Shown: positions 43,894 through 58,519, counted from the first letter of the stretch. The stretch: 64,000 bases of DNA from Planctomycetota bacterium (GCA_965223545.1 OZ245006.1:4160001-4224000), one strand, 5' to 3'. Translations and numbers: made by a program. Notes: a model not told the origin generated them from the sequence alone.

Positions 43894-44688
43894 ATGGACC
43901 TTCCGTTCAGCGCACAACGCAAGCACTTTCGCGTGGCATGGCGCATGTCCGTCGAGGTCGTGCCCGACGACGGCGGAGACTCGGTGCGCGCCAGCACGCT
44001 CAACATCTCGGCCGGGGGCATGAGCTTGCTCACCGCCAAGCCGCTGCCGAAGGATGCGGCGGTGGAGTTGCGCTTCGAGCTGCCGGACGGGGTGCAGCGG
44101 CGCAGAATGCAAGTGCGGGGCAGCGTGCTGCGCAGCGGCGTTCTACCCAATCGGGCGCCTTCGGCGGCGGTGGTGTTCGGCGAGATGGACTCGCGCGACC
44201 GCGCGTTCGTGCGCAGCTGCGTGCTGCATCAGGCGCTGCGGCAGATGCAGTCGATGGCCGAGTACCAGGCGTTTCGCACGGTCTCGGATCTCGACCTCCT
44301 GCAGCTCGCGTCGGTGTCCAACGAGCTCGTGTTGGCGGCGGGCGACTACGCCGCCCACCACGGCGACGAGGCCACCAGCGTGTTCTTGGTCAAGTCGGGC
44401 AAGGTGCGGCTGATGGGACCGGGGGCCGCCGCCGACGAGCCGCCGATCGAGGTGGTGCACGCGGGGCAGATGTTCGGCGAGGTGTCGGCCCTACTCGCCC
44501 TCCCACACAGCTTCGACGTGATCGCCACCGAGCCGACCGAGCTCTTGGTGGTCTCGCGCGCGGCGCTGAGCTACCTGCGCGAGCACAATCTGCACCTCGC
44601 CCTGGTGCTGTACGACATCATCGTCGCTTTCATGGCGCGCCGCGTGCGGCGGCTCACCGCGCGGCTGGCGGCCACCGCCCCGTTCTGA
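43894..44688 (+). CDS. PilZ plus cyclic-nucleotide-binding domain protein
   Basis: QRKHFR (RxxxR) and NISAGG (D/NxSxxG); C-terminal FLVKSGKV...GQMFGEVS cNMP domain. Confidence 0.85.
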   Translation: MDLPFSAQRKHFRVAWRMSVEVVPDDGGDSVRASTLNISAGGMSLLTAKPLPKDAAVELRFELPDGVQRRRMQVRGSVLRSGVLPNRAPSAAVVFGEMDSRDRAFVRSCVLHQALRQMQSMAEYQAFRTVSDLDLLQLASVSNELVLAAGDYAAHHGDEATSVFLVKSGKVRLMGPGAAADEPPIEVVHAGQMFGEVSALLALPHSFDVIATEPTELLVVSRAALSYLREHNLHLALVLYDIIVAFMARRVRRLTARLAATAPF

Positions 44689-44833: not shown

Positions 44834-46267
44834 ATGCCGTCGTTCATGGCCCACAGCACCGCGCAGCTCAGGGCGACCTGGGAGCGGCTCGATGCCGCCC
44901 AGCGCTGGGTCATCGCCAGCGTGCCGTTGGCCGCGGCCGGCGCCTTGATCAGCGTTCTCGCATTCGCGGCCGGCGGGCGCGAGCGCGTCGCGTGGACCGG
45001 CACGGGCGCCGAGCTGCAGGTCGCGGTCGGTGCGTTGGACGGTCGCGTCGGCTACCGCATCGAAGAGGGGCGGTTGGTGGTCGCTGCGGACGACCTGCAG
45101 CGGGCTCGCCGACTGCTGTGGAGCGCGGGCGTGGCGGCAGAAGACGCATCGTCCGTCGATGACCATGCTGGCCGCGAAGGCGACGTCGCGCGCGCGCTGG
45201 AGCGCGCCGCCGCGCAGCAGCTGGAGCGCTTCCAGCACGTCGTCGAGGCGCGGGTGGCGTTCGCGGCGCCGGTCGTTGTCGGTGATGCAGCGCGCGCGCA
45301 AGTCGGGCTGCGGCTGGTGCGCGGCGCCGATTTCCGCGAGCTGGCGCCGGTGGCGGCGAGCACCGCATCGGCGGCGCTGGGCGTGCCGGTCGATGCGGTG
45401 TCCGTGGCCAACCTGACGACCGCCGAGCTGTGGAGCGCGGGGGGTGATCGCCTCGGTAGTGCGGACGCGGCGGAGGAGTTCCTGCGCATGCAAGAGCGCC
45501 GCACGCGGCAGCTGACCGCCGTGGCCCAGTCGATCCTCGACGCGCTGTACCCGGGCAAGGCGATCGCCCGCGTCCATGTCGAGCTCGATCCGGAGATGCG
45601 CACGGTGCTCGACCGGAGTGCCAGCGACAACCCCGTGTTGCTGCGCTCATCGACCAACAAGGAGGAGACGCGATCGCCGGCGGAGCGAGATCCACGCGCC
45701 GTGCCGGAGATCGGCACCGAGGTCTTCTCCCGCCCCACCGAGAGCTCGCAGCTGCGCGAGAACGAGTACTCACCGGAGTCGTTCGTCGAGACCAGCACCA
45801 AGCACCTGGCTCCAGCGGTCCGCGCCGTCGGCGTCGCTCTCTTCGTCGATCGCCAGGCACTCGGTTCGACCGACACCGCGGCGCTGTGCCGGCAGATCGG
45901 CGTCGCCGTCGGGTGGCGCGAGGGGCGGGATCCCGCGATCGAGGTGCACCCTGTCGACCTGCCCGAACCGCCGCGGCACGACCCCTCGGCAGCCGCTGCG
46001 GCGTGGGCATGGTACGAGCGGCACCAGCCCATCGTCGCGGGAGCCACCGGCACCGCGCTGGTACTGCTGTTCTTGGTGTGGATGATCCGGCGGGCGACGG
46101 GCCCCCGCGCCGCGAGAGTCGCACCGGCCGGCGTGGCGGCGGCGGCCGGCGAGTCCGCCAGCGAGGGTGACTCCGACGCCCGCAACAGTATCGAGCAGGC
46201 GATCGATCGAGATCCCGCCGCGATCACGCGGGCACTCGAGACTTGGTTGCAGGAGCAGCGACCGTGA
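44834..46267 (+). CDS. fliF: FliF-like MS-ring protein, divergent and shortened
   Basis: EGDVARALE, VVEARV, ILDALYPGKAIARVHVELD, VGVALFVD, VAVG...GRD, a second TM helix and DPAAITRALETWL; coupled to fliG. Confidence 0.7.
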   Translation: MPSFMAHSTAQLRATWERLDAAQRWVIASVPLAAAGALISVLAFAAGGRERVAWTGTGAELQVAVGALDGRVGYRIEEGRLVVAADDLQRARRLLWSAGVAAEDASSVDDHAGREGDVARALERAAAQQLERFQHVVEARVAFAAPVVVGDAARAQVGLRLVRGADFRELAPVAASTASAALGVPVDAVSVANLTTAELWSAGGDRLGSADAAEEFLRMQERRTRQLTAVAQSILDALYPGKAIARVHVELDPEMRTVLDRSASDNPVLLRSSTNKEETRSPAERDPRAVPEIGTEVFSRPTESSQLRENEYSPESFVETSTKHLAPAVRAVGVALFVDRQALGSTDTAALCRQIGVAVGWREGRDPAIEVHPVDLPEPPRHDPSAAAAAWAWYERHQPIVAGATGTALVLLFLVWMIRRATGPRAARVAPAGVAAAAGESASEGDSDARNSIEQAIDRDPAAITRALETWLQEQRP

Positions 46268-47280
46268 CCGCGGACGAACCCGGCGGCCCGACCCCCGATC
46301 AGGCGGTCGCGGTGTTGTTGCTGTCGATCGAGCCCGAGCGCGCCGCCTCGGTGTTGCGTCGTCTGGCGCCCGAGGCGCTGCGCCGCATCGTGCAGGCGAT
46401 GCGCGAGGTCGGCACCGAGACGCTGGACGGGGCGGCGATCGGCCGGGTGCACGAGCTGGTCGAGAGCCGGCTGCGGGCGGCCTCGCCTGGGGTGTCGAGC
46501 CTGGCGGACCTGCACCAGCTGTTGGTCGCGGCGTTCGGCGAGGAGCAGGCCGCGCAGCTCGAAGACGAGGCGACCCGGGAGTTGGAAGCACGGCGACCTC
46601 TGGCGGTGTTCGAGGCGCTCGATCCACAGGATCTCGCCGCCCTGGTCGCCGAGGAGCACCCGCAGATCGCCGCCGTGTTCCTCGCCAACCTGGATCGCGG
46701 CAAGGCGGGAACCGTGCTGCGACACTTGCCGCCGTCGGTGAGGCCGGACCTGGTGCGCCGCGTCGCCACGCTGGACCGGACCGCTCCGGACGTCGTCGCG
46801 CGCGTCCTCGACGTGATGCGTCAAAAAGTGCGCGACCTGGGACTGTCCGGCCTGCGCGCCGAGCCCATGCTGTGGATCAAGGCCGCCGCCGGCATGCTCA
46901 ACCACATGGGAGGTGGCGAGCGCCGAGTGCTGGACGGCATTGCCGAGGTCGACCCGGAGATCGCCGCCGCCGTGCGCGAGGAGATGTTCACGTTCGACGA
47001 CCTCGCCAAGCTCAACCGCCGCGGGATGCAGCGCATTCTCAGCCAGGTGGACTCGCGCGTCCTGGCGCTGTCCCTCAAGGCGGCGAGCACCGAAGTCGAG
47101 GAGAACGTGTTCGGGAATCTGTCCCGCCGGGCGGGCGAAATCGTGCGCGAGGAGCGCGAGATGCTCGGCCCGACGCCGCTGGGCGAGGTGCTCGCGGCGC
47201 AGCAGGACATCCTCGAGCTGGTGCGCTCGCTCATGGACAGCGGCGACCTCTCGGTCGTCGACGAAGAGACGCTGGTCTGA
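46264..47280 (+). CDS. fliG: Flagellar motor switch protein FliG
   Basis: AVLLLSI, EEHPQIAAVFLA, EEMFTFDDL, LALSLK, NLSRRA and LGP..LGEV.AAQ. Confidence 0.92.
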   Translation: MTADEPGGPTPDQAVAVLLLSIEPERAASVLRRLAPEALRRIVQAMREVGTETLDGAAIGRVHELVESRLRAASPGVSSLADLHQLLVAAFGEEQAAQLEDEATRELEARRPLAVFEALDPQDLAALVAEEHPQIAAVFLANLDRGKAGTVLRHLPPSVRPDLVRRVATLDRTAPDVVARVLDVMRQKVRDLGLSGLRAEPMLWIKAAAGMLNHMGGGERRVLDGIAEVDPEIAAAVREEMFTFDDLAKLNRRGMQRILSQVDSRVLALSLKAASTEVEENVFGNLSRRAGEIVREEREMLGPTPLGEVLAAQQDILELVRSLMDSGDLSVVDEETLV

Positions 47281-47352
47281 TTCTCCACGGGTTGCGGCTC
47301 GAGCGTCGCTCAGCTAACACTCGGGCCCCGACTGTCGCGGGGGTCGAATCCG

Positions 47353-47802
47353 ATGACACGCAGCCGTCGCGTCTTGCTGGTAGCTTCGAGCGGTGGTTAT
47401 TGGGTGCAGCTGCAACGGCTGGCGCCCGCGTTCTCGAGTTGGGAGCGGATCTACGTCTCGCCACAGCCCGGATATCGCTCCGAGGTCCCCGAGCACCGCT
47501 TCTTCACCGTGCGCGATGCGCCGCGCCGCCGCGGCAGCCTGCGGCTCGCGCTGGCGATGCTGGCGATCGTCGTGCGCGAGCGCCCGCGGGTCGTGATCTC
47601 GACCGGCGCGCTGCCGGGCTACTACGCCCTGCGCTTCGGCAAGTGGATCGGCGCCCACACGATCTGGGTGGACTGCGCTGCGCATGCAGAGGCGATGTCG
47701 CCGGCCGGCTTGCGCGCGCGGCGTTTCGCCGACTTGTGGCTGACCCAGTGGCGACACCTCAAGCGTCGCGGCGGCCCCGACCACGCCGGGAGCGTGCTTT
47801 GA
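47353..47802 (+). CDS. PssD/Cps14F (Alg14-like) glycosyltransferase subunit
   Basis: LLVASSGG, ERPRVVISTGA, TIWVD and ADLWLTQW. Confidence 0.88.
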   Translation: MTRSRRVLLVASSGGYWVQLQRLAPAFSSWERIYVSPQPGYRSEVPEHRFFTVRDAPRRRGSLRLALAMLAIVVRERPRVVISTGALPGYYALRFGKWIGAHTIWVDCAAHAEAMSPAGLRARRFADLWLTQWRHLKRRGGPDHAGSVL

Positions 47803-48284
47803 TCTTCGTCACCGTCGGTTACCACGAGCCGTTCGATCGATTGGTGCGCGTGGTCGACGATTGGGCGGCGCTGCACCCGGACCGCGAGGTGTTCGCCCAG
47901 ATCGGCGACTCCAGCTGGCACCCGGAGCACGTGCCGTGGTGCGATTGGCTGCTGCCGGCGCAGTATCGCCGGGTGGTCGGCGAGGCGTCGTGCGTCATCT
48001 CGCACGCGGGCATCGGCGCGGTCTGCGCGGCGCGCCGGGCGGCGGTGCCGCTCTTGGTGATGCCGCGCCGCGCGGAGCTGGGCGAGGCCGACGACGAGCA
48101 CCAATCCGTGGCGGCGCGCCAATTCGCCCGCGCCGACTGGGCGACGGTGGTCGAAGACGAGACGCAGCTGGCCGATCGCCTGACCGACCTCGACCAGCTG
48201 CGGCGCGCGCCGTCCCTCGGGCCGCACGCCGACCGCGAGATGCTCGAGGCGCTGCACGCCTTTGCCGCGCGCGCCAGCCTCTAG
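47799..48284 (+). CDS. PssE/Cps14G (Alg13-like, GT28 C-terminal) subunit
   Basis: IFVTVG..PFDRL, FAQIG, ISHAGIG, VMPR...E..DEHQ; TTG start overlapping the previous stop. Confidence 0.88.
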   Translation: MIFVTVGYHEPFDRLVRVVDDWAALHPDREVFAQIGDSSWHPEHVPWCDWLLPAQYRRVVGEASCVISHAGIGAVCAARRAAVPLLVMPRRAELGEADDEHQSVAARQFARADWATVVEDETQLADRLTDLDQLRRAPSLGPHADREMLEALHAFAARASL

Positions 48285-48319
48285 CCCCGACCATGATGAC
48301 TGGGCGCCTCCGACGCTCG

Positions 48320-49711
48320 CTACGTCCCGGTGCCGCGCAGAACCACTCCGAACGTCCGCAGCATCAGCTTGAAGTCCATGCTCAACGACCAGTGGTCCAC
48401 GTAGTAGAGGTCCATCGCCACCCACTGGTCGAAGGACACGCGGGCGGTCCGGCCGGTGACCTGCCACAGGCCGGTGATGCCTGGCGGGACCGACATCCGC
48501 CGCCGGTGCCAGAGGTCGTACTTGGCGACCTCCTCGGGGATCGGCGGCCGCGGACCGACTAGGCTCATGTTGCCGATCAGCACGTTGAACAGCTGCGGCA
48601 GCTCGTCCAGACCGTGCTTGCGCAGCAGGCGCCCGATTCTGGTGATGCGCGGGTCGTCCTTGATCTTGAACGCGGCACCTTGCTGTTCGTTCTTGGCGGC
48701 GAGCTCGGCCTGCATCCGCTCGGCGCCGACACACATCGTGCGGAACTTGAAGCAGGCGAACGCGCGGCCGTGCCGTCCGAGCCGCTCCTGCACGAACAGC
48801 ACGGGGCCGCGGTCCTGCAGCTTGATGGCGATGGCGATCGCCAGCATCACCGGTGAGAGCAGGATCAGCGCCACCCCCGACACGGCGAGGTCGATGCCGC
48901 GCTTGGCGACCACGCGCCACGGTGTCGAACGCCGGTGGCGGAACGTCAGCGCGGGGATCTCGCCGTACCACGCCAGCGCCGGCACCAGATCGTGAGCGGC
49001 GAGGAAGCCGGGGGCGTAGTGGCAGCGGATGCCCGCCTCGCTGCACACTTCGAAGACCTTCAGCACGTCGGCGTTGCGGGCGTCGTCGGGTGGGCAGAGC
49101 AGGACGTAGTCGACGTGGTGCCGCAGCAGGACCCGCTCGAGATCGGCGATGCCGCCCATGCTGCGCACGTCGTCGAGCTCGTGCTCGCCCTCGCCGAGCG
49201 GAATGCCGCCGAGGATGACGATGCCGTATTGCGGGTTGTCCCGGAGCTCGCGCCGGAGCCGGACGGCGGACTCGCCGCCGCCGACGAACAGCGCGCGGCG
49301 GTAGTTGAGGCCGCGGAGACGGATGCGGCGCAGCGAGAAGCGCAGCGTGACGCGGAGCGTCGCCAGTCCCAGGTAGCCGGTCACCGCCGCGATCAGCGGC
49401 TCGAACGCCGGGGCCCCGTGCGCGATCTGGGCGAACAGGACGGTGAGGCCCAGCGTTGCGACCCAGGTCTCCGCCAGCGCCAGCAGTTCCAGGCGCGAGC
49501 CTTGGGTGCGGCGCGATCGATAGAGGCCCAGCCGCGCCGACAGCACCAGCCAGGCGACGGCGGCGACCGCGATCTGCCAGCCGCAGTCGGCCCAGGAACC
49601 CGCGCTTCCGGCCGCCAGATAACGCCGCGAGAACGCCACCGCCGTGCCGACCAACAACAAGTCGTTGGTCACCAGAACGCGGTGCAGTGCGAGGTGGTGG
49701 CTCTGCAGCAT
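48320..49711 (-). CDS. Polyprenyl-phosphate glycosylphosphotransferase (WcaJ-like priming sugar transferase)
   Basis: KRGID, FKFRTM, DPRITRIGRLLRK..LDELPQLFNVL.G.MSLVGPRP, PGITGLWQV; the start may be further upstream. Confidence 0.93.
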   Translation of the reverse strand: MLQSHHLALHRVLVTNDLLLVGTAVAFSRRYLAAGSAGSWADCGWQIAVAAVAWLVLSARLGLYRSRRTQGSRLELLALAETWVATLGLTVLFAQIAHGAPAFEPLIAAVTGYLGLATLRVTLRFSLRRIRLRGLNYRRALFVGGGESAVRLRRELRDNPQYGIVILGGIPLGEGEHELDDVRSMGGIADLERVLLRHHVDYVLLCPPDDARNADVLKVFEVCSEAGIRCHYAPGFLAAHDLVPALAWYGEIPALTFRHRRSTPWRVVAKRGIDLAVSGVALILLSPVMLAIAIAIKLQDRGPVLFVQERLGRHGRAFACFKFRTMCVGAERMQAELAAKNEQQGAAFKIKDDPRITRIGRLLRKHGLDELPQLFNVLIGNMSLVGPRPPIPEEVAKYDLWHRRRMSVPPGITGLWQVTGRTARVSFDQWVAMDLYYVDHWSLSMDFKLMLRTFGVVLRGTGT

Positions 49712-50087
49712 GCGGCGGAAGAGGGGCCCGGGTGCGCGGCGAGGTGTGCGAGGTGGGTCGCGGTCCGCTCCGCCCGGCGGTCGGCGCCGGGCGGGAGCGG
49801 TTCGCGGCCGCTGGATCGCCGACGAGGCGTTCCAATCCTCAGTGTAGCTCCGGGTCGTGCCGCGCGGCAACGAGCGCGTCGCCGAGCGGACCGTACGATT
49901 CCGTGGCACGGGCCGGTTGGTCGGTCGGGGTGGCCTCCGGCGGGGCCATCGGTTTTTCTACACTGCCCGGGGCCGCCAGCCGATCCAGCGAGTAGCGCCG
50001 CATGTCCCCCATCGACCCAACGACCCCCCTGTCATCTTGGCCCCCCAACGCTCGCCGAGCGGATGTCCGCGTCGACGAGGCAGCGCC

Positions 50088-50864
50088 ATGAGGGTCGGGA
50101 TCCTCGCCGGCGGCTTCGGCTCGCGGTTGGCCGAAGAAACCGAGATTCGGCCCAAGCCCATGGTCGAGATCGGTGGTCGTCCGATTCTGTGGCACATCAT
50201 GCGCCACTACGCATCATTCGGACACACCGAGTTCGTCATCGCGCTCGGCTACAAGGGAGAGCTGATCAAGAAGTTCTTCGCCGACTACTGCGCCCTGGGC
50301 GGCAACGTCACCGTCGATTTCGGTGCGCGCTCGGTGCGCAGCCATGGACGCGAGCAGCTCGAGTGGAAGGTCGACCTGATCGAGACCGGTCCGAGCACGC
50401 TCACCGGCGGCCGGATCAAGCGGTTGGCGCCGTACCTTGGCGACGAGACGTTCATGGTCACCTGGGGTGACGGCGTCAGCAACGTCGACGTCGACAAGCT
50501 GGTCGCGTTCCACAAGGCGCACGGCAAGCTGGCGACCGTGACGGCGGTGCGGCCGCCGGCACGCTACGGTCGGTTGGAGATCGAGGACGGTCGGGTGGTG
50601 GACTTCTCCGAGAAGCCGCAGCTCGCCGAGGGCTGGATCAACGGTGCTTTCTTCGTGCTCGAGCCCGGGGTCTTCGATTACATCGATGGCGATGACACCA
50701 TGTGGGAGCACGCGCCGCTCGAGCGCCTGGCGCGGCACGGCCAGCTGATGGCGTACGAGCACGCCGGCTTCTGGCAGTGCATGGACACGCTGCGCGAGAA
50801 GCGAATCCTCGAGAACCTGTGGGCCTCCGGCTCGGCACCCTGGAAGACCTGGAGCGACGACTGA
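50088..50864 (+). CDS. rfbF: Glucose-1-phosphate cytidylyltransferase
   Basis: [30 protein letters not shown] and [11 protein letters not shown]. Confidence 0.95.
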
Positions 50865-51895
50865 TGCGAGTCTTGATCACCGGCCACGAGGGCTACATCG
50901 GCGCGGTCTTGGTGCCGCTGACGCAGGCCGCTGGGCACCAGGTGGTGGGGCTGGACAACGGTCTGTTCCGCGGTTGCACGTTCGGCGCCGAGCCGCCTGC
51001 GCTCGAGGAGCTGGACATGGACGTCCGCGACGTCGAGGAGGAGCACCTGCGCGGATTCGACGCGGTGTTCCATCTCGCCGGCCTGTCCAACGATCCGCTC
51101 GGCGACCTGCAGCCACAGCTCACCTACGACATCAACCACATCGCCTCGGTGCGGTTGGCGGAGAAGGCGCGCGCTGCAGGCGTGCAGCGGTTCGTGTTCT
51201 CGTCGTCGTGCAGCAACTACGGTGCCGCCGAGGACGGGCTGTTGGACGAGAGCTCGGCGTTCAATCCGGTGACGCCGTACGGCGAGTCCAAGGTGCGCTC
51301 CGAGCAAGACATCGCCAAGCTCGCCACCGACGAGTTCTCGCCGACCTTCCTGCGCAACGCCACGGCCTACGGCCTCTCGTCGCGGCTGCGCGGCGACTTG
51401 GTGGTCAACAATCTGACCGGTTACGCGTTCACCACCGGCAAGGTGCTGTTGAAGAGCGCCGGCACCTCGTGGCGGCCACTGGTCCACATCGAGGACATCT
51501 CGCGCGCGTTCCTCGCCGTGCTGCACGCGCCGCGCGAGAAGGTGCACAACGAGGCGTTCAACGTCGGCCGCACCGCCGAGAACTACCGGATTCGCGATGT
51601 CGCCGAGCTGGTCGCCGACATCGTGCCCAACAGCACCGTGGAGTTTGCCGAAGGCGCAAGCCCCGACAAGCGCAACTACAACGTCAGCTGCGACAAGATC
51701 TGCGAGGTGCTGCCCGAGTACCAGCCGACGTGGACCGTGGCGGCCGGCATCCGCGAGATGTACGACGCGTTCTCGCGCGAGAAGTTGACCTACGACCAGT
51801 TCGTCAGCCCCAGGTTCCTGCGCATCAAGCACGTGCTGCAGCTGCGCGGCGAGGGCCGGTTGGACGACGACCTTCGCCTGAACGGCACTGCCTGA
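50864..51895 (+). CDS. NAD-dependent epimerase/dehydratase (extended SDR)
   Basis: [29 protein letters not shown] and RNATAYG. Confidence 0.92.
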
Positions 51896-51905
51896 GCTGT
51901 CCGCG

Positions 51906-53162
51906 ATGCAGCCGGCCTGCCGTTCTTGCGGGAGCAGCGCCCTCGAGCGCTTCCTCGATCTCGGCCGGTTGCCGCTGCCGGACGCGCTGCGCCTGCCCGA
52001 CCAGATTGGCGCACCGCAGGCGCGCTACCCGCTACAGGTCTCGTTCTGCTCGAGCTGCAGCTTGGTGCAGATCACCGAGGAGGTCGATCCCGGCGAGATG
52101 TTCGTCGAGAACTACCACTACTTCTCCTCGTTCAGCGAGGACCTGCTGCGCCACTCCAAGGCCAACGTCGACGAGCTGATCGCGGCCCGCGGGTTGGGCG
52201 AGAACAGCCTGGTGGTGGAGCTGGCGAGCAACGACGGCTACCTGTTGCAGTTCTTCGCGGCGGCCGGTGTGCCGGTGCTCGGCATCGACCCTTCCCCCGG
52301 ACCGGCGGCCGCGGCGGTGAAGCGCGGGATCCCCACGCTGCAGCAGTTCTTCAGCGCCGAGCTGGCAGAGCAGCTGCGCGCCGAGGGCAAGCAGGCCGAT
52401 GTGATCGTCGCCAACAACGTCCTGGCGCACGTGCCCGACACCAATGGCTTCGTCAGTGGCATCGCCAAGCTGCTCGCGCCGCACGGCACCACGTCGATCG
52501 AGGCGCCGTACGTGCGCGACCTGATCGACCACTGTGAGTTCGACACGATCTACCACGAGCACTTGTGCTACTTCTCGGTGACGGCGGTGCAGGCCCTGTG
52601 CGCACGCCATGGCCTGCACCTCAACCGGGTGCGGCACCTCGAGATCCACGGGGGCTCGTTGCGCTACTACGCCAGCCCCACGGCGGACCCGGACGGCTCG
52701 GTGGAGCGCTACCTCGCCGAAGAGCGGCAGAGCGGTTTGGATCGGTTCGACTACTACGCCGACTTCGCCGGCCGCGTGCGCGATCTGAAGCAGCGCCTGT
52801 TGGCGCTGGTCCGCGGCCTGGTCGCCGACGGCAAGCGCGTGGCGGCGTACGGAGCGGCGGCCAAGGGCGCGATCATGCTCAACTACGTCGGCCTGGACGA
52901 TTCCCTGATCGACTTCGTGGTCGACCGCAACGTGCACAAGCAGGGGCGCTACATGCCCGGAGTCGACGTGCCGATCCTGCCGCCGCAGGCGTTGCTCGAG
53001 CGAGGTCCCGACTACGTCTTGATTCTGCCGTGGAACTTCCGCGACGAGATCGTGCGCCAGCAGCGCGAGTACGCGAGCCGCGGCGGGCGGTTCATCGTGC
53101 CGGTGCCCGAGCCGGTGGTCCTGGCCGGTGACCCCGCGGTCCCGATCGAGCACCGCGGATGA
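51906..53162 (+). CDS. NDP-hexose C-methyltransferase family protein
   Basis: CRSC/C..C zinc site, ELASNDGYLL, NNVLAHVP, FDTIYHEH, HGGSLR, YGAAAKG and LPWNF. Confidence 0.92.
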   Translation: MQPACRSCGSSALERFLDLGRLPLPDALRLPDQIGAPQARYPLQVSFCSSCSLVQITEEVDPGEMFVENYHYFSSFSEDLLRHSKANVDELIAARGLGENSLVVELASNDGYLLQFFAAAGVPVLGIDPSPGPAAAAVKRGIPTLQQFFSAELAEQLRAEGKQADVIVANNVLAHVPDTNGFVSGIAKLLAPHGTTSIEAPYVRDLIDHCEFDTIYHEHLCYFSVTAVQALCARHGLHLNRVRHLEIHGGSLRYYASPTADPDGSVERYLAEERQSGLDRFDYYADFAGRVRDLKQRLLALVRGLVADGKRVAAYGAAAKGAIMLNYVGLDDSLIDFVVDRNVHKQGRYMPGVDVPILPPQALLERGPDYVLILPWNFRDEIVRQQREYASRGGRFIVPVPEPVVLAGDPAVPIEHRG

Positions 53163-54334
53163 CCGTCGCCTGCTTTGCCTGCGGCTCTGACCGCACCCGT
53201 GTCTTCCACTCGGTAGACGGGGTGCCGGTGCACAGCTGTCTGTTGATGGAGTCGCGCGCGGCGGCGCGCGCGTATCCGCGGGGAGATCTGCGCATCGCGT
53301 TCTGCCAGCACTGTGGCTTCATTCAGAACTCCGCGTTCGACCCGAGTGTGCACGAGTACTCGCAGCGCTATGAAGAGACGCAGGCGTTCTCGCCGCGGTT
53401 CATGCAGCTGGTCGCCGAGCTGACCGAGCACTACGACCAGCGCTACGCGCTGGCCGGCAAGACCGTCTTGGAGATCGGTTGTGGCAAGGGCGAGTTCTTG
53501 GTCGCGCTTTGCGAAGCCGCTGGCTGCTCCGGCATCGGCATCGACCCGGGCTATCGCCCGGAGCGCACGACGAGCCCTGCGCGCGATCGCATCGAGTTCA
53601 TCGTCGACTTCTACTCGCGCGACTACGCGCACCTGCAGGCCGACATGGTGTTGTGCCGGCACACGCTCGAGCACATCCAACCGACCCGCGACTTCGTGTC
53701 GATGGTCCGCGACGCGGTCGGTGACGTGCCCGCGACCGTGGTCGCGTTCGAGCTGCCGGACATGGAGCGGATCCTGGCGGAGCAGGCATTCTGGGACATC
53801 TACTACGAGCACTGCTCCTACTTCACGCTCGGTTCGCTGGCGCGGCTGTTCCGCCGCTGTGGGTTCGAGATCCTGGAGCTGACCAAGTGCTTCGATGACC
53901 AGTACCTGCTGCTCGACGCGAGGCCGACCTCGGCTGCGACTCCGCCGGCCCACGCGGCCGAGGAAGACGTCGAGCACCTGCGCGGGTTGGTGGCTGGGTT
54001 CGAACGGGGGTTGGCCGAGAAGATGGCCGGCTGGCGCGCGTTCTTCGAGGGGGCCGCGCGGCGCGGCGAGCCCGTCGTGCTCTGGGGGTCCGGCTCCAAG
54101 GCGGTCGCGTTCCTGTGCGAGCTGCAGCTGGGCGACGCGATCGACTGCGTCACCGATATCAATCCGCACAAGCATGGCAAGTTCATGCCGGGCACGGGGC
54201 ACGAGATCGTCGCTCCCGAGGCGCTGGCCGGCCGGCGACCCGCGCACGTCGTGGCGATGAACCCGATCTACTCTGACGAGATTCGGGCCGAGCTCGATCG
54301 TCTCGGCGTGGCCGCCGAGCTGCACGCCGTGTGA
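53159..54334 (+). CDS. Class I SAM methyltransferase (C-methyltransferase family)
   Basis: CFAC/C.HC, EIGCGKG, RHTLEH, DIYYEH and WGSGSK. Confidence 0.9.
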   Translation: MTVACFACGSDRTRVFHSVDGVPVHSCLLMESRAAARAYPRGDLRIAFCQHCGFIQNSAFDPSVHEYSQRYEETQAFSPRFMQLVAELTEHYDQRYALAGKTVLEIGCGKGEFLVALCEAAGCSGIGIDPGYRPERTTSPARDRIEFIVDFYSRDYAHLQADMVLCRHTLEHIQPTRDFVSMVRDAVGDVPATVVAFELPDMERILAEQAFWDIYYEHCSYFTLGSLARLFRRCGFEILELTKCFDDQYLLLDARPTSAATPPAHAAEEDVEHLRGLVAGFERGLAEKMAGWRAFFEGAARRGEPVVLWGSGSKAVAFLCELQLGDAIDCVTDINPHKHGKFMPGTGHEIVAPEALAGRRPAHVVAMNPIYSDEIRAELDRLGVAAELHAV

Positions 54335-55494
54335 TGGCCGCTGCCGCGCGACGATGTCCGGTTTGCCGCGCCGCCGGTGGCGATGAGTTCTTCGCCGCCG
54401 AAGCGGTCCCGGTGCACTGCAACGTATTGCATGGCGACGCCGGCGCGGCCCGACAGGCGCCGCGCGGAGACCTTCGCCTGGTGTTCTGCGCCGACTGCGG
54501 CCTCATCTACAACGCGGCGTTCGAGCCGGCGCTGGTGGCGTACTCGCCGGACTACGAGAACTCGCTGCACTGCTCGCCGCGGTTCGCCGACTACGCCGCG
54601 GAGCTGGCGCAGCGGTTGCTCGCCGAACAGGGCGCGGATCGGCGGCGCGTGTTGGAGATCGGCTGTGGCAAGGGTGATTTCTTGGCGCAGCTGTCGGCGG
54701 CGGGAGCCACCGCGTGCTTGGGATTTGATGCGTCGTACGACGGCCGGCACGGCGCCGGGCTGGAGATCGTGCGCTCGGGCTGGGATCCGGATCGGGCGGC
54801 GTCGTTTGCGCCGGACCTGGTGGTTTGCCGGCACGTGTTGGAGCACATCGAGACCCCGGTGGAGTTCTTGCGCGGCGTCCGCGGCGCGCTGCCCGCGGGT
54901 TGTCGCGCGTACTTCGAAGTGCCGGACACCATGTTCACGCTGCGCGACCTGGGCGTGTGGGACGTCATCTACGAACACTGCGTCTATTTCACTGCGCCGT
55001 CGCTGTGGCGCGCGTTCAGCGAAGCGGGGTGGTCGGTGCGCGGTGTCGACAGCGCGTTCGGGGGGCAGTTCTTGTGGCTGGAAGCCAGCGTCAGCGGTGC
55101 CGGCCGGTTCGACCCCGACCCCGGCGAGCGCGCGCGGCTGCCCGAGCTGATCGACCGGTTCGCCGCCGAGCACCGGCGCGTCGTCGCGCGCTGGAGCGAG
55201 ACCCTGGCGGAGCTCGAAGTCGCGGGCAACGGTGTCGCGGTCTGGGGCGTCGGGTCCAAAGGTGTGACATTCCTCAACACCGTCGACCGCGCCGCGGGAA
55301 TCGATGTCGCGATCGACATCAATCCGCGCAAGGTGGGGCGTTTCGTGCCCGGTACGGGGCACCGCGTCGAGGCGCCCGAGGCTCTGGTCGGTGCTGGGGT
55401 CGGCACGGTCTTGGCGATGAATCCCAACTACCGCGAGGAGATCGCGGGCCGGCTCGCAGAGCTCGGGGTCAGGGCCGACGTGGTCTGTGTTTGA
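54334..55494 (+). CDS. Class I SAM methyltransferase (C-methyltransferase family), paralog of the previous gene
   Basis: CPVC/CADC, EIGCGKG, RHVLEH, DVIYEH and WGVGSKG. Confidence 0.9.
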   Translation: MAAAARRCPVCRAAGGDEFFAAEAVPVHCNVLHGDAGAARQAPRGDLRLVFCADCGLIYNAAFEPALVAYSPDYENSLHCSPRFADYAAELAQRLLAEQGADRRRVLEIGCGKGDFLAQLSAAGATACLGFDASYDGRHGAGLEIVRSGWDPDRAASFAPDLVVCRHVLEHIETPVEFLRGVRGALPAGCRAYFEVPDTMFTLRDLGVWDVIYEHCVYFTAPSLWRAFSEAGWSVRGVDSAFGGQFLWLEASVSGAGRFDPDPGERARLPELIDRFAAEHRRVVARWSETLAELEVAGNGVAVWGVGSKGVTFLNTVDRAAGIDVAIDINPRKVGRFVPGTGHRVEAPEALVGAGVGTVLAMNPNYREEIAGRLAELGVRADVVCV

Positions 55495-55548
55495 GGCCGG
55501 GCCGGGGGCGGCTGTGGTTGGCAGCGGCCAAGTGCCGATAGCATCGAG

Positions 55549-55788
55549 GTGGAGCGGTTCGGCGACAGAATCGAGCGGGCACGTGCCGGGCGGGACCTCG
55601 GTGTTGCGCGCGCTCGCCAGCGGTTGCAGCTGGCGTTGTGCGCGTTGACGGTGCGTGTGCGGCAGCAGCCCCGGGCACTGGACACGGAGGCGGCTGCGGC
55701 GGCCGCCGCGGCCGCCCACGCGGACTACCTCGATCGGCAGCGCGCTCGCCTCGGCTTGCTGCGTGCACTGCGGCGGAGGCAATCGTGA
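55549..55788 (+). CDS. Small helical protein, possible FliJ remnant
   Basis: Sits where fliJ normally precedes motE/ylxF and is GTGA-coupled to the next gene; sequence similarity is weak. Confidence 0.3.
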   Translation: MERFGDRIERARAGRDLGVARARQRLQLALCALTVRVRQQPRALDTEAAAAAAAAAHADYLDRQRARLGLLRALRRRQS

Positions 55789-56585
55789 AGCGAGCCGGCG
55801 TCATGACCGCGGTCGGTGTGCTGTTGTTCGTGGCGACCATCTTCGTCCTGCTCGCGTTGCAGGGGCGGCTCGACTACGCGGGGACGCGGGGCATTCCGCT
55901 GGTGCAGAGCCTGTTCTCCAAGCCGTCCTCGGCGACCGACGCGTCGCGGACGGCGCGGCCGCGCGCGCTACCGCCGGCGCCGGCGGCGGAGCCGGCGCTC
56001 GATGCCGCCAAGCAGCAGCAATTCGAAGCCCGAGTCGAGGCGTTGACCGATCCCGGTCGCCAACCGCAAACCGGCTTGTTTCAGCTGCCGCTGTTGGAGT
56101 CCGGCCTGTCGGCCGCCGATCTCGACGAGATGGCGCGGGCCGCGCGCGAGCAGCGAGAGTCGCTGGCCCGGCGGGAGGCGGCCCTCGACCACCGCGAGGA
56201 GCAGCTCGCGGCGCGGGAGGACGACGTCACCAGGCGACACGGCGAGGTGCAGTCGCTGATGCGCGACGTGGTCGATGCACGGCAGCAGCTGATGGAGGAA
56301 CGCCGCGAGCTGGGTCGCCTGTACACCTTCATCGATGAGAGCGAGGAGTCGCGCTACCGAGAGCAAGCCCGGTTCCTGGCCGGTCAAGATCGCGTGCAGG
56401 CGGGCGGCGTGGTGCGCGAGATGTGGCGCAGCGAGAGTGGCCGCACTGACGCCGTGCGCATGCTGCGGCTCATGCAGGCCGAGGATCGCGACGAAATCCT
56501 CGCGGTCTTGTCGGCTGCCGAGCTGCGCGACATCGTCGCGCGGCTCGCCAACGCCGTGATCGTACCGGCGGGAGACAAGCAATGA
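55785..56585 (+). CDS. MotE/YlxF/FlbB-like protein (TM helix, coiled coil, MgtE-N-like domain)
   Basis: N-terminal TM helix, long coiled coil and C-terminal AVRMLRLMQAEDRDEILAVL; upstream of fliL. Confidence 0.6.
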   Translation: MKRAGVMTAVGVLLFVATIFVLLALQGRLDYAGTRGIPLVQSLFSKPSSATDASRTARPRALPPAPAAEPALDAAKQQQFEARVEALTDPGRQPQTGLFQLPLLESGLSAADLDEMARAAREQRESLARREAALDHREEQLAAREDDVTRRHGEVQSLMRDVVDARQQLMEERRELGRLYTFIDESEESRYREQARFLAGQDRVQAGGVVREMWRSESGRTDAVRMLRLMQAEDRDEILAVLSAAELRDIVARLANAVIVPAGDKQ

Positions 56586-56615
56586 TCGCGTCGAGCGGAA
56601 CGCGGGAGGTGCAAC

Positions 56616-57158
56616 GTGGCACTTGATGCGCAGAAGTGGGGGCGCGCGCGACGCACGTCGTGGTTGGTGCTGACGGTCGTTGGCGCCGCGGTCGGAGCCG
56701 CGGCGGTCGTGGTCATCACTCCGCGGTCCGGCGCTGGCGAGCAGCAGCCGGTGTCCAAGGCGGTGTCGCTCTACGACCACCCCCGGCCGATGGAGTTCAC
56801 CTTCAACCCGATCGTCGACCGTGGACACAAGACCGCCTTGATCACTTTCAAGTTCAGCTACCGGGCGGACACTTTCGACATCTATGGCGATCGCGACCCG
56901 GAGGTCGGCGAGCGCGAGCGTCTGAAACTGGACATCGCCGCCCTGGGCGTCGTGCCGAAGAGGATCGAGCGCCACTGGGACCGCGCCTACTCGCGGTGCC
57001 TGGAGATGCTCACCAACCAGCGTGCCGAGACGCTGATGGACCCCAAGGGCAAGGTCCTGATCAAGCGGATGCTGCGGGACGAGCTCACCAGCAGCTTGTT
57101 TCCCGAGGGCGCCGCGCGCGTCGACGACATCCTGTGGACCAAGTTCGTGCTGCAATGA
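56616..57158 (+). CDS. fliL: FliL-like protein
   Basis: Single TM helix, EFTFNP, ETLMDPKGK.LIK..LRDEL and VDDILWTKFVLQ C-terminus; ATGA-coupled to fliM. Confidence 0.8.
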   Translation: MALDAQKWGRARRTSWLVLTVVGAAVGAAAVVVITPRSGAGEQQPVSKAVSLYDHPRPMEFTFNPIVDRGHKTALITFKFSYRADTFDIYGDRDPEVGERERLKLDIAALGVVPKRIERHWDRAYSRCLEMLTNQRAETLMDPKGKVLIKRMLRDELTSSLFPEGAARVDDILWTKFVLQ

Positions 57159-58153
57159 GCGAGCTGCTCTCCAACACCGAGATCGAGACCTTGCTCTTGG
57201 CGTTCCGCGCCGAGGGCGAGACGCTGCACGATGCGGTCGCGGCGCTGGAACGGCAGCGGCAGCCCAACCAGACCGGCCCACGCGCGCACGTCACCGAGGT
57301 CGACCTGCTGAAGCCGAACCGCTTCGCCCGCGACCAGGTGCGCCGCGTCGAGCGTTTGCTCAACGGCGCCGCCAAGGGCATCGCCGCGTCGTTGAGCGAC
57401 CGGCTGCGGCTCGAGGTCGGTTGCGATTGCGTCGCCGTCGAGCAGATGCGGTTCTCCACGTGGATGTCGCTGCTGGTCGACCCGGTGGCCATCTACATGC
57501 TCGATCTGCCGCCGCTGGAGACCCCGGTGCTGCTGACCGCCACGACCGACCTGCTGCACCGCGCGGTCGATCGGGTCATGGGCGGCGTCGGCCGGGGCGT
57601 GGCGGAACGCTGCGAGCTCACGGACGCCGAGTTCGCGGTCGTGGATGCGTTGATCGGACCGTGCCTCGACAAGCTTTGCCGCGCCCTGGAGGAACTCGGC
57701 CAGTTCGCGTGGAGCATCGAAGGGCGCACCTGCAACCCGACGACTGCCGAGATCTTCCCCGGGCAGGACGTCGTCCTCGCGGCGCACCTGCAGGTATCCA
57801 GCCAGCCGATGCTCGGCGACTTCCGCCTGGTCGTGCCGCACAGCGGGTTGGCGGCGCTGTTGGAGACGGTCGATCCATGGCCGGGGCCGAGCCAGGCCGC
57901 AAAGCCGGGGGCGATGCGCGCGGCCACGACGCGGTCGGTGCGCGGAGTCCCGGTGTCGCTGACGGTGGAGCTCGGCCGCTTGCAGCTGCAGCTCGGCCGG
58001 CTGCTGTCGATGCAGCCGGGCGACGTGCTGCCCCTCGGAGGGCGCGGTATCGAGTCCACGGTCGCCAAGGTGCAGGGCATGCCGAAGTTCCGCGGCAAGG
58101 TCGGCGTTCGCGGCCGTCAGTTGGCGTTCCAGGTGGTCGAAGTGGTGGAGTAG
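57155..58153 (+). CDS. fliM: Flagellar motor switch protein FliM
   Basis: LLSNTEIETLL (LSQxEIDALL-like), VDLLKPNRF, VDRVMGG.G, ELTDAE and C-terminal SpoA domain with MQPGDVL. Confidence 0.88.
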   Translation: MSELLSNTEIETLLLAFRAEGETLHDAVAALERQRQPNQTGPRAHVTEVDLLKPNRFARDQVRRVERLLNGAAKGIAASLSDRLRLEVGCDCVAVEQMRFSTWMSLLVDPVAIYMLDLPPLETPVLLTATTDLLHRAVDRVMGGVGRGVAERCELTDAEFAVVDALIGPCLDKLCRALEELGQFAWSIEGRTCNPTTAEIFPGQDVVLAAHLQVSSQPMLGDFRLVVPHSGLAALLETVDPWPGPSQAAKPGAMRAATTRSVRGVPVSLTVELGRLQLQLGRLLSMQPGDVLPLGGRGIESTVAKVQGMPKFRGKVGVRGRQLAFQVVEVVE

Positions 58154-58156
58154 GGC

Positions 58157-58519
58157 ATGACCGAAGAAGACAAACGCTCGCGGCCCAAGCGCAAACCGGC
58201 GCAACGCGCCCGGAGTCGCCCGGTCGAGTTCGAGCCGCTCGAAGAATCCATGACCGCCGGGGAGCGGCCCAATCTGGACCTCTTGATGGACGTCTCGATC
58301 CCGGTCTCCGTGGAGATCGGCCGCGCCGACGTCCACTTGCAAGAAGTGCTCGACCTGGTGCCGGGCAGCGTCGTCACGCTGGACAAGAAGGCGGACGAGC
58401 CGATCGATCTCCGCGTCAACGGCAAGCTGGTCGCGCGCGGAGAGGTGGTATTGGTCGACGACAGCTACGGCCTGCGCGTCACGCAGATCCTCGATCCTGT
58501 GCGCCGTATCGGCGAGTGA
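58157..58519 (+). CDS. fliN: Flagellar motor switch protein FliN
   Basis: NLDLLMDVSIPVSVEIGR, GSVVTLDK, VNGKLVARGEVVLVDDSYGLRVT. Confidence 0.95.
   Translation: MTEEDKRSRPKRKPAQRARSRPVEFEPLEESMTAGERPNLDLLMDVSIPVSVEIGRADVHLQEVLDLVPGSVVTLDKKADEPIDLRVNGKLVARGEVVLVDDSYGLRVTQILDPVRRIGE

Follow-up and report, generated by a model that had tools for sequence, protein, structure and literature searches.

Repeated reduction of the flagellum to its motor genes in a family of Planctomycetota

Introduction

The flagellar remnants of Buchnera and Chlamydia are export-only. Here we describe a set of flagellar genes of the opposite kind, fliF, fliG, a motE-like gene, fliL, fliM and fliN, in a 64,000-nucleotide stretch of DNA (the window; G000:C1:4160001-4224000) from the genome of a Planctomycetota bacterium (G000; GCA_965223545.1 OZ245006.1). 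The same genome carries motA and motB, genes for an export apparatus, rod, hook and filament were not found anywhere in it, and the reduction from a full flagellum to a motor recurs among its relatives.

[quoted passage not shown] The accessible portions of two further papers (PMC13277936; PMC10746217) contain nothing on motor-only remnants. No description of a motor-only remnant in Planctomycetota was found in the literature, supplements and subscription journals lying outside the scope of that search.

Materials and methods

The G000 assembly comprises 8.1 Mb in two contigs and is 91.24% complete, with the window on a continuous 8.07-Mb contig. Comparisons were made within a family sample of 73 genomes (≥80% complete) and a class sample of 172 genomes (≥88% complete). 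Named relatives recovered with G000 FliG are mostly Planctomycetota metagenome assemblies, one of which is labelled CL500-15. CL500-15 is described as a clade of OM190 (PMC5607371), a group equated elsewhere with the proposed Saltatorellota (10.1101/817700), and this single label suggests a placement of G000 in OM190.

Family-domain searches for FlhA, FliP, flagellin and rod/hook proteins were positive in all four flagellated control genomes; profiles built from the family held 1 to 55 sequences each, and the same approach recovered fliO in G000. Among public sequencing runs, X1 and X2 may be the source sample of G000 and X4 comes from another sample in that study, while runs X5-X7 gave only short pieces, identical to the window DNA, which offered no strain variation to compare. 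X4 cover is low at 55.7-58.2 kb of the window, which is uninformative because 66% of X4 was read. A scan of metagenomes for FliM gave no match. The three-lineage tree and conservation test were run without genomes G040 and G048, and the flagellated reference set was assembled without G064. Omega was estimated with a pairwise codon model; dS is saturated in most pairs, so only finite values and direct site counts were used.

Results

Motor genes without an export apparatus in G000

Family-domain searches of the whole G000 genome found no FlhA, FliP, flagellin or rod/hook domains (PF00460 and PF06429 for rod/hook proteins and PF00669 for flagellin were without a match), and tblastn with the flagellar clusters of the flagellated relatives G011 and G009 recovered no flgB, flgC, fliE, fliH, fliJ, fliP, fliQ, fliR, flhA, flhB, flgA, flgD-N or fliK. 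Family profiles for 11 genes (FliH, FliJ, FliE, FlgB, FlgC, FliQ, FliR, FlhB, FlgG, FlgD and FlgM) were likewise all unmatched in G000. The best matches to FliI, 26-31% identical and located away from the operon, are probably ATP-synthase subunits. The export gate of a non-flagellar type III secretion system was also not found in G000, PF00771 and PF00813, which cover the SctV and SctR families, having no match.

An earlier note, made from the window alone, had concluded that export and hook genes were missing from their canonical positions, and had left room for a split but ordinary flagellum whose other genes lay elsewhere. The whole-genome search does not support the latter, and the absence stands genome-wide. 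Absence from the expected positions proves nothing alone, because in the flagellated G011 and G009 the fliK-flgD-flgE and fliO-flhA blocks are not adjacent to the fliF-fliN operon either, and sahR-metH follows fliN in G009 too. The order that the note described, fliF-fliG, eight glycan genes, the motE-like gene, fliL, fliM and fliN and then a sahR-like gene and metH, was confirmed, as were the intact and coupled frames of its rotor genes. Frames of all the motor genes are open, with 4-bp overlaps at fliF/fliG and fliL/fliM. FliG carries the EHPQ and MFTFDDL motifs, and in alignment these and the charged residues of the torque helix match those of flagellated relatives (the final Arg of the torque motif is replaced by Pro in G000, and likewise in every flagellated relative shown). 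The FliM N-terminus reads LSNTEIETLL, a CheY-binding end that is conserved in all six of the motor-only genomes described below. FliF is diverged, as the note had it, but hardly shortened, since full-length copies in flagellated relatives have 479-512 aa and this one has 477 aa; its two transmembrane helices (by hydropathy), RBM3 and FliG-binding C-terminus are all present, and all three ring-building regions can still be aligned.

The stator genes, counted by the note among the missing, stand about 700 kb away as an intact motA-motB pair (G000:C1:3501342-3502843). MotA retains the RREGLLALE segment and the cytoplasmic Arg/Glu pair and MotB its membrane Asp and plug (PRK09109 over cut-off); flagellated relatives show the same MotA segment and MotB Asp. 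A location of motAB away from the operon is seen in the family members examined. Pfam recovers only the plug of MotB, in G000 and in flagellated G009 alike, and the C-terminal part of the protein aligns across the family. Because motAB is also present and intact, the unit kept in G000 appears, from its genes, to be the whole motor, rotor plus stator; 'rotor-only' was thus right as to the rotor genes and wrong as to 'only'. MotB proteins of family f1 are short (~240 aa), and their periplasmic part is without an OmpA-like model match in flagellated members too (e.g. L143:4119-4844); it is possibly a divergent wall-anchoring domain.

The gene that follows the glycan cluster, described in the note as a FliJ-sized frame, is really a 79-aa relic, compared with 145 aa in the sister genome G009, which nonetheless retains its 4-bp overlap with motE. 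Its codon-model score is 0.067, against 0.20-0.30 for the motor genes, and the family FliJ profile matches it in a one-sequence search only (E 6e-4) and not genome-wide. The motE-like gene is so named for position and shape, not from a family model. Its product has an N-terminal membrane helix, a coiled coil and a C-terminal helical domain and is 40% identical over 162 aa to the product of the gene after fliJ in G009; Pfam MgtE_N matches it in relatives only and not in G000, and comparison of its profile with solved structures gave no convincing match.

The losses are clean deletions

Relatives carry the order flgB-flgC-fliE-fliF-fliG-fliH-fliI-fliJ-motE-fliL-fliM-fliN and a second block, fliO-fliP-fliQ-fliR-flhB-flhA-flhF-flhG. 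In G000 pssD comes after fliG, in the place that fliH-fliI occupy in relatives, and this junction is spanned by one X4 contig with 0 differences. The second block survives as fliO-flhF-flhG (G000:C1:3583885-3586218; L144:13886-16219), from which fliP-fliQ-fliR-flhB-flhA have been removed to leave 19 bp between fliO and flhF, a junction spanned by X1, X2 and X4 contigs with 0 differences. In relatives the absent genes are spread over four or more separate blocks, and three of these were excised within the 8.07-Mb contig with their neighbours joined. The losses in G000 are therefore deletions with clean junctions and not gaps in the assembly.

The two genes left at the end of this block have fared differently. 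FlhF, now without the G3 motif and with G1 incomplete, is perhaps a dead GTPase; its identity to the G009 protein is 36%, compared with 58% for a more distant flagellated control. The conservation of FlhG matches that seen in a flagellated control (50% vs 47%). The same fliP-flhA deletion occurred independently in the relative G034, where FlhF looks intact.

Chemosensory and regulatory genes also remain in G000 despite the absence of a flagellum, at C1:2438137-2445623, 2949516-2957119, 3096318-3096704, 3573722-3577116 and 3894375-3895118; they comprise two clusters of chemosensory genes, a solitary cheY whose orthologue in relatives belongs to the flagellar cluster, cheD, a cheC-like gene, a gene for an HDOD protein and two for sigma factors of the FliA/WhiG type. 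The TIGR01420 cut-off is passed by ten ATPase genes of the PilT family, at ten C1 loci, an unusually large pilus-retraction set.

The same reduction recurs in the family

FliG was found in 57 of the 73 family genomes, FlhA in 51 and this MotA in 58. FliG and FlhA occur together in 50 genomes and neither occurs in 15; six genomes are motor-only and two are discordant. The motor-only genomes are G000, G034 and all four species of genus g28 (G027, G077, G078 and G079), and the five other than G000 have fliF-fliG-motE-fliL-fliM-fliN and motAB, the same eight genes as the window genome, with FliP and CheW each in 0/5 and no rod domain. Flagellin was not found in g28. MotA is present in 6/6 motor-only genomes, against 1/15 of those with neither marker, where it stands without motB. 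Across the 172 class genomes, seven have FliG but no FliP and one has a FliP fragment but no FliG. Four genomes that at first seemed discordant have rod genes, with FliI or flagellin/FlgL where checked, and were judged ordinary: G004 and G063, each without one marker and treated as assembly gaps, and G105 and G139, which have FliG without FliP. Among 78 FliG loci examined, 72 have fliH and/or fliI after fliG and none is motor-only; of the remaining six, five end too early and one (L297) is not a fliG locus.

In G034 a 177-aa flagellin with its middle deleted lies beside fliS (G034:C169; L237:1175-2125), and cheY is truncated too; these are signs of a recent loss of the flagellum.

FliF has been trimmed in a particular way in the other two lineages. 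It is 280-298 aa long in g28, as called, and 360 aa in G034, and by alignment, profile and hydropathy the RBM1-RBM2 stretch is deleted while RBM3, both membrane helices and the FliG-binding tail are kept. Loops of RBM2 contact FliP/FliR, and RBM3 alone builds the S-ring and collar (PMC11739650), around which FlgY, a relative of MotE, is described as forming a ring that templates stator recruitment (PMC12054838). Because FliF keeps RBM3 and loses its export-gate domains, and because FlgY rings the collar and recruits stators, the kept set corresponds to the rotor-stator interface.

Independent origins and selection after loss

A RpoB tree of 29 genomes (G034 and G078 gave no RpoB match and are not in it) places G000 beside the flagellated G009 with support 100/99 and g28 in another clade, in which the motor-less G008 is sister to g28 and the flagellated G023 and G031 come next. 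A FliG+FliM+FliN tree of 35 genomes broadly follows the RpoB tree and places G034 among G011 and G004; here a single motor-only clade is rejected (p-AU 8e-9). By the two trees taken together, the motor-only state arose in three independent lineages of the family.

Within g28 all eight genes are open in 4/4 species, and all divergence within the genus post-dates the loss. Fourfold-degenerate sites differ there by 0.42-0.55 (saturation ~0.6) and second positions by 0.12-0.21, omega = 1 is rejected with likelihood-ratio statistics >1,000, and the genes with finite dS in the G077-G078 pair give omega values of 0.02-0.05, far below 1. A neutral point-mutation simulation, which assumed an 85% GC equilibrium, left stop-free gene sets in 3/200 trials at 0.1 substitutions per site and in 0/200 at 0.25. 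The motor genes of g28 have been under strong purifying selection since the loss. G000 retains 443/540 family-conserved columns compared with 151/676 variable ones, which is indirect evidence of selection and contrasts with the relic fliJ and with FlhF shorn of its GTPase motifs.

A probable fourth reduction

Two genomes of the related family f5, G040 (L259:2737-11228) and G048 (L100:9452-17929), both among the seven class genomes with FliG but no FliP, carry a compact and further reduced cluster that encodes TPR-like and kinase-like proteins, a sigma-54-type response regulator, a FliG-domain protein, a motE-like protein (its gene split across two frames in G040), MotA, MotB and a second MotB-like protein. 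FliM, FlhA, FliP, rod and flagellin genes were not found in either genome. The FliG-domain protein (599/605 aa) begins with two membrane helices and is likely a natural FliF-FliG fusion; its FliF-like N-terminus was not significant by profile or BLAST, and its identification rests on the two helices and a weak tail motif. A single-sequence structure model of the G040 protein was too poor (pLDDT 45) and was left unused. The gene order equals that of the family f10 flagellar operon minus deleted blocks, and MotA falls outside the f1 MotA clade. Motor-only reduction has probably occurred a fourth time, in a related family of the same order. These genomes come nearer than G000 to a compact layout with fused FliF-FliG, outer-membrane or TPR partners and motAB in one cluster; in G000 fliF and fliG are separate genes and no outer-membrane or TPR partner is linked to them.

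The glycan cluster is a passenger

The eight glycan genes (47353-55494) stand between fliG and the fliJ relic and motE-like gene and comprise pssD-like and pssE-like genes, a wcaJ-like gene on the minus strand, an rfbF-like gene, an epimerase and three methyltransferases. Six of them (all but the pssD/pssE-like pair) lie between fliI and fliJ in G009, 52-79% identical (54% for the wcaJ-like protein), and G009 is fully flagellated, with FlhA, FliP and rod genes. The cluster is missing from the remaining five motor-only operons, of which three have an unrelated kinase gene at the site, and two of these three also have a single glycosyltransferase gene. Because flagellated G009 has the cluster at the same site and the other motor-only operons lack it, it is older than the loss of the flagellum and a passenger, not a part of the motor. 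The fliI-fliJ gap holds unrelated cargo in other relatives as well. A ring linked to polysaccharide synthesis, as the earlier note had proposed, was accordingly dropped, and with it the motor as a switch for that synthesis.

Insertions often split the flagellar operons of this family: ~14 kb lies between fliQ and fliR in G031:C32 (L307:5132-19357), and varied cargo follows fliI at loci L047, L067, L282 and L284. The kinase gene mentioned above encodes a Ser/Thr kinase of 660-677 aa and follows fliG on the same strand in G027, G078 and G079 (e.g. L183:15527-17509); it is not at this site in G077.

Neighbouring features of the window

Upstream of fliF lies a gene for a protein with PilZ and cNMP-binding domains, present in four of the 73 family genomes; in the other three it stands directly upstream of flgB, and the gene is an old operon member left beside fliF once flgB-flgC-fliE were lost. 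The protein contains RKHFR and NISAGG, which fit the PilZ motifs RxxxR and (D/N)xSxGG, and it is likely a c-di-GMP-responsive regulator of the motor. A sigma-70-type promoter was not found, and terminators were not in excess. Coordinates are given in Table 1.

Table 1. Genes of the motor operon and its interposed cluster, in window coordinates
Feature	Position	Strand	Basis
PilZ + cNMP-binding protein	43894..44688	+	Pfam PilZ E 1e-10, cNMP_binding E 3e-15
fliF, MS-ring protein, 477 aa	44834..46267	+	weak Pfam YscJ_FliF, YscJ_FliF_C; family profile vs solved FliF E 1.6e-38
fliG, rotor protein	46264..47280	+	Pfam FliG_N, FliG_M, FliG_C; alignments
pssD/pssE-like glycosyltransferase pair	47353..48284	+	NCBIfam PssD, PssE matches below cut-off
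wcaJ-like polyprenyl glycosylphosphotransferase	48320..49711	-	TIGR03025 over cut-off
rfbF-like cytidylyltransferase, NAD-dependent epimerase, three sugar methyltransferase-like genes	50088..55494	+	Pfam/NCBIfam; G009 orthologues
truncated fliJ relic, 79 aa	55549..55788	+	weak codon score; one-sequence family FliJ profile match
motE/FlgY/FlbB-like accessory protein	55785..56585	+	position, shape, G009 identity
fliL, stator-associated ring protein	56616..57158	+	Pfam FliL over cut-off
fliM, switch protein	57155..58153	+	Pfam FliM, FliMN_C; alignment
fliN, C-ring protein	58157..58519	+	TIGR02480 over cut-off

Discussion

There is reason to lean, if only by a little, towards a flagellar motor that has been kept in working order for a non-swimming role after the export, rod, hook and filament genes were deleted. 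The earlier note's suggestion of an MS/C-ring retained for a non-flagellar role thus finds support at the level of the family, in the three lineages, the purifying selection and the trimming of FliF, with the amendment that the kept unit appears to be rotor plus stator. In such a motor RBM3 of FliF would nucleate the ring, beneath which FliG, FliM and FliN would build the C-ring; the MotE-like protein and FliL would dock MotAB units around it; and ion flow through MotAB would push on FliG, such that a shaftless ring would either rotate or stay tensed against the cell wall. The ring, docking and torque steps are proposed because they are known motor biology. Stator number and switch state would then be read or set by signalling proteins, namely a CheY-like regulator on FliM and in G000 also the PilZ-cNMP protein, and the readout would feed surface behaviour, for example the activity of type IV pili. 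This output is the weakest step, and we offer it tentatively. The most likely role is the sensing of envelope load or energy state, because stator engagement depends on load and on ion-motive force, because the regulator-binding end of FliM is conserved in all six genomes, those in which CheW was not found included, and because G000 carries both the PilZ-cNMP gene and ten PilT genes.

Several observations weigh against a working motor under selection. Constraint has relaxed, and the rotor proteins evolve faster in all three lineages: the rotor branch of G000 measures 0.93 against 0.29 for G009, though their RpoB branches are 0.13 and 0.14, that of G034 measures 0.31 against 0.13, and the g28 stem is 1.12 under midpoint rooting. 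Of the conserved columns, g28 keeps a fraction of only 0.66-0.68 and G000 one of 0.82, compared with 0.94 in G009, and post-loss selection on the G000 branch is gauged indirectly, G000 being the only species of its genus sampled. Total loss (15/73) is commoner than the motor-only state, which may be a stage on the way to it; G008, the sister of g28, has no FliG and no MotA and may have passed through that state and left it. Lone leftovers occur as well: G064 has motA but no motB, G122 a fragment of fliP, and G034 the internally deleted flagellin with fliS. The three lineages have no signalling or envelope partner in common: of the six genomes only G000 has the PilZ-cNMP gene, CheW was not found in any of the other five, and an FlhG query in g28 recovered no orthologue, the best match being a different MinD-like paralogue.

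These observations bear most directly on slow decay, in which the costly filament, hook, rod and export genes are lost first and the cheap motor genes linger unused, a process that we regard as somewhat unlikely to account for the pattern and yet as the foremost competitor. Rotor branches 2.4-3.2 times longer than those of flagellated sisters are what it would lead one to expect, as are the degenerate FlhF and fliJ relic within G000, the flagellin remnant and fliS of G034, the absence of FliG and MotA from G008 and the leftovers of G064 and G122, and a few rotor proteins are held to be cheap to keep (PMC12199754). It might also be expected, however, that idle genes would have broken, and all eight are open in four g28 species despite nearly saturated synonymous divergence. 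Retention of fliF-fliG and motE-fliN further requires separate deletions flanking fliF-fliG in each lineage, the chance of keeping just the two motor blocks out of six blocks not used for picking the genomes is 1 in 15 per lineage by a crude hand count, and FliF has lost its export-gate domains specifically. Decay, which the earlier note had entertained for this locus, is therefore weak for g28 and remains a real rival for G000, where it is fair; it is strongest for G034. That an ordinary flagellum is merely incomplete in the assembly seems very improbable: completeness is 91%, and single flagellar genes do drop out in G004, G063, G105 and G139, but here at least four blocks are missing, three of them excised inside the 8.07-Mb contig, and two of the junctions are bridged by other contigs.

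Two further roles would leave selection in place. A shaftless motor might do mechanical work on the envelope, its ring pushing a periplasmic or outer-membrane partner through the collar or a MotE-like ring and thereby aiding surface or shape-changing motility. All torque parts (stator, FliL, MotE-like protein, FliG charges) are kept, and a close FliG relative bears the label CL500-15, an OM190 clade (PMC5607371); cultured OM190 are reported to show amoeba-like locomotion, and two of the three were without a flagellum in >300 cells despite a full gene set (10.1101/817700). We nevertheless consider this improbable: none of the three lineages has an envelope partner linked to its operon, the large gene past fliN in g28 has a counterpart of similar size in the flagellated G028 and G031, the 2019 authors ascribe the motility to an actin homologue (10.1101/817700), and G000 is placed in OM190 by one label. 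Less probable still is a polar-landmark role, in which the MS/C-ring, together with FlhF/FlhG, would position division or other machines in the manner of Campylobacter jejuni and the stator would be a passenger. The retention of flhF-flhG in G000 and G034, with G000 FlhG at 50% identity against 47% for the flagellated control, would suit that arrangement, but it leaves motAB unexplained in 6/6 genomes, and FlhF lacks G3 and part of G1 in G000 while the best FlhG match in g28 is a different MinD-like paralogue.

If the motor is indeed kept for a role other than swimming, a wider proposal can be entertained with some doubt, namely that the flagellar motor of this class has a second, flagellum-independent job and has been stripped to a shaftless rotary motor four times. 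As part of the same doubtful proposal the lineages would form a series, from full FliF with its switch (G000), through ring-domain FliF (G034 and g28), to a FliF-FliG fusion accompanied by MotE and MotAB, with FliM not detected (G040/G048). Were this so, living genomes would show a route from the flagellum to stand-alone rotary envelope motors, and such motors could underlie the unexplained non-flagellar motility of the group. The natural minimal rotors themselves, RBM3-only FliF and the likely FliF-FliG fusion, are of use for studying ring assembly without an export gate.

The locus is closest to the flagellar motor itself, that is, the FliF MS-ring, the FliG/FliM/FliN C-ring, MotA5B2, FliL and MotE/FlgY/FlbB. 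Its genes are orthologous, vertically inherited and in ancestral order, and the rotor-stator charges, the MotB Asp and the CheY-binding end of FliM are those of a motor; G000 has the sequence features of a motor core. It differs from a complete flagellum in that no export gate or ATPase, rod, L/P rings, hook or filament was found, leaving nothing for a rotor to turn, and in that FliF is without RBM1-RBM2 in two of the three motor-only lineages. A non-flagellar type III secretion system differs too, there being no match to its SctV/SctR gate in G000. In C. jejuni the MS- and C-rings take part in FlhG-dependent control of division, a ring role with no need of FliH/FliI, and flhG is kept in G000 and G034; that organism, however, has a complete flagellum, whereas the motor-only genomes co-retain the stator and do not have FlhF/FlhG in all lineages (PMC6946799).

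The export-only remnant of Lysobacter enzymogenes is alike in that a flagellar sub-module was kept for a new job after the flagellum was lost, and is in its content the mirror image, having lost fliG, fliM, motA and motB and kept the export apparatus, the reverse of the motor-only genomes (PMC9927559). What is new here are repeated, traceable reductions from a full flagellum to its motor. Known flagellar remnants drop the motor and keep export; in these genomes the pattern is reversed, and it is recurrent.

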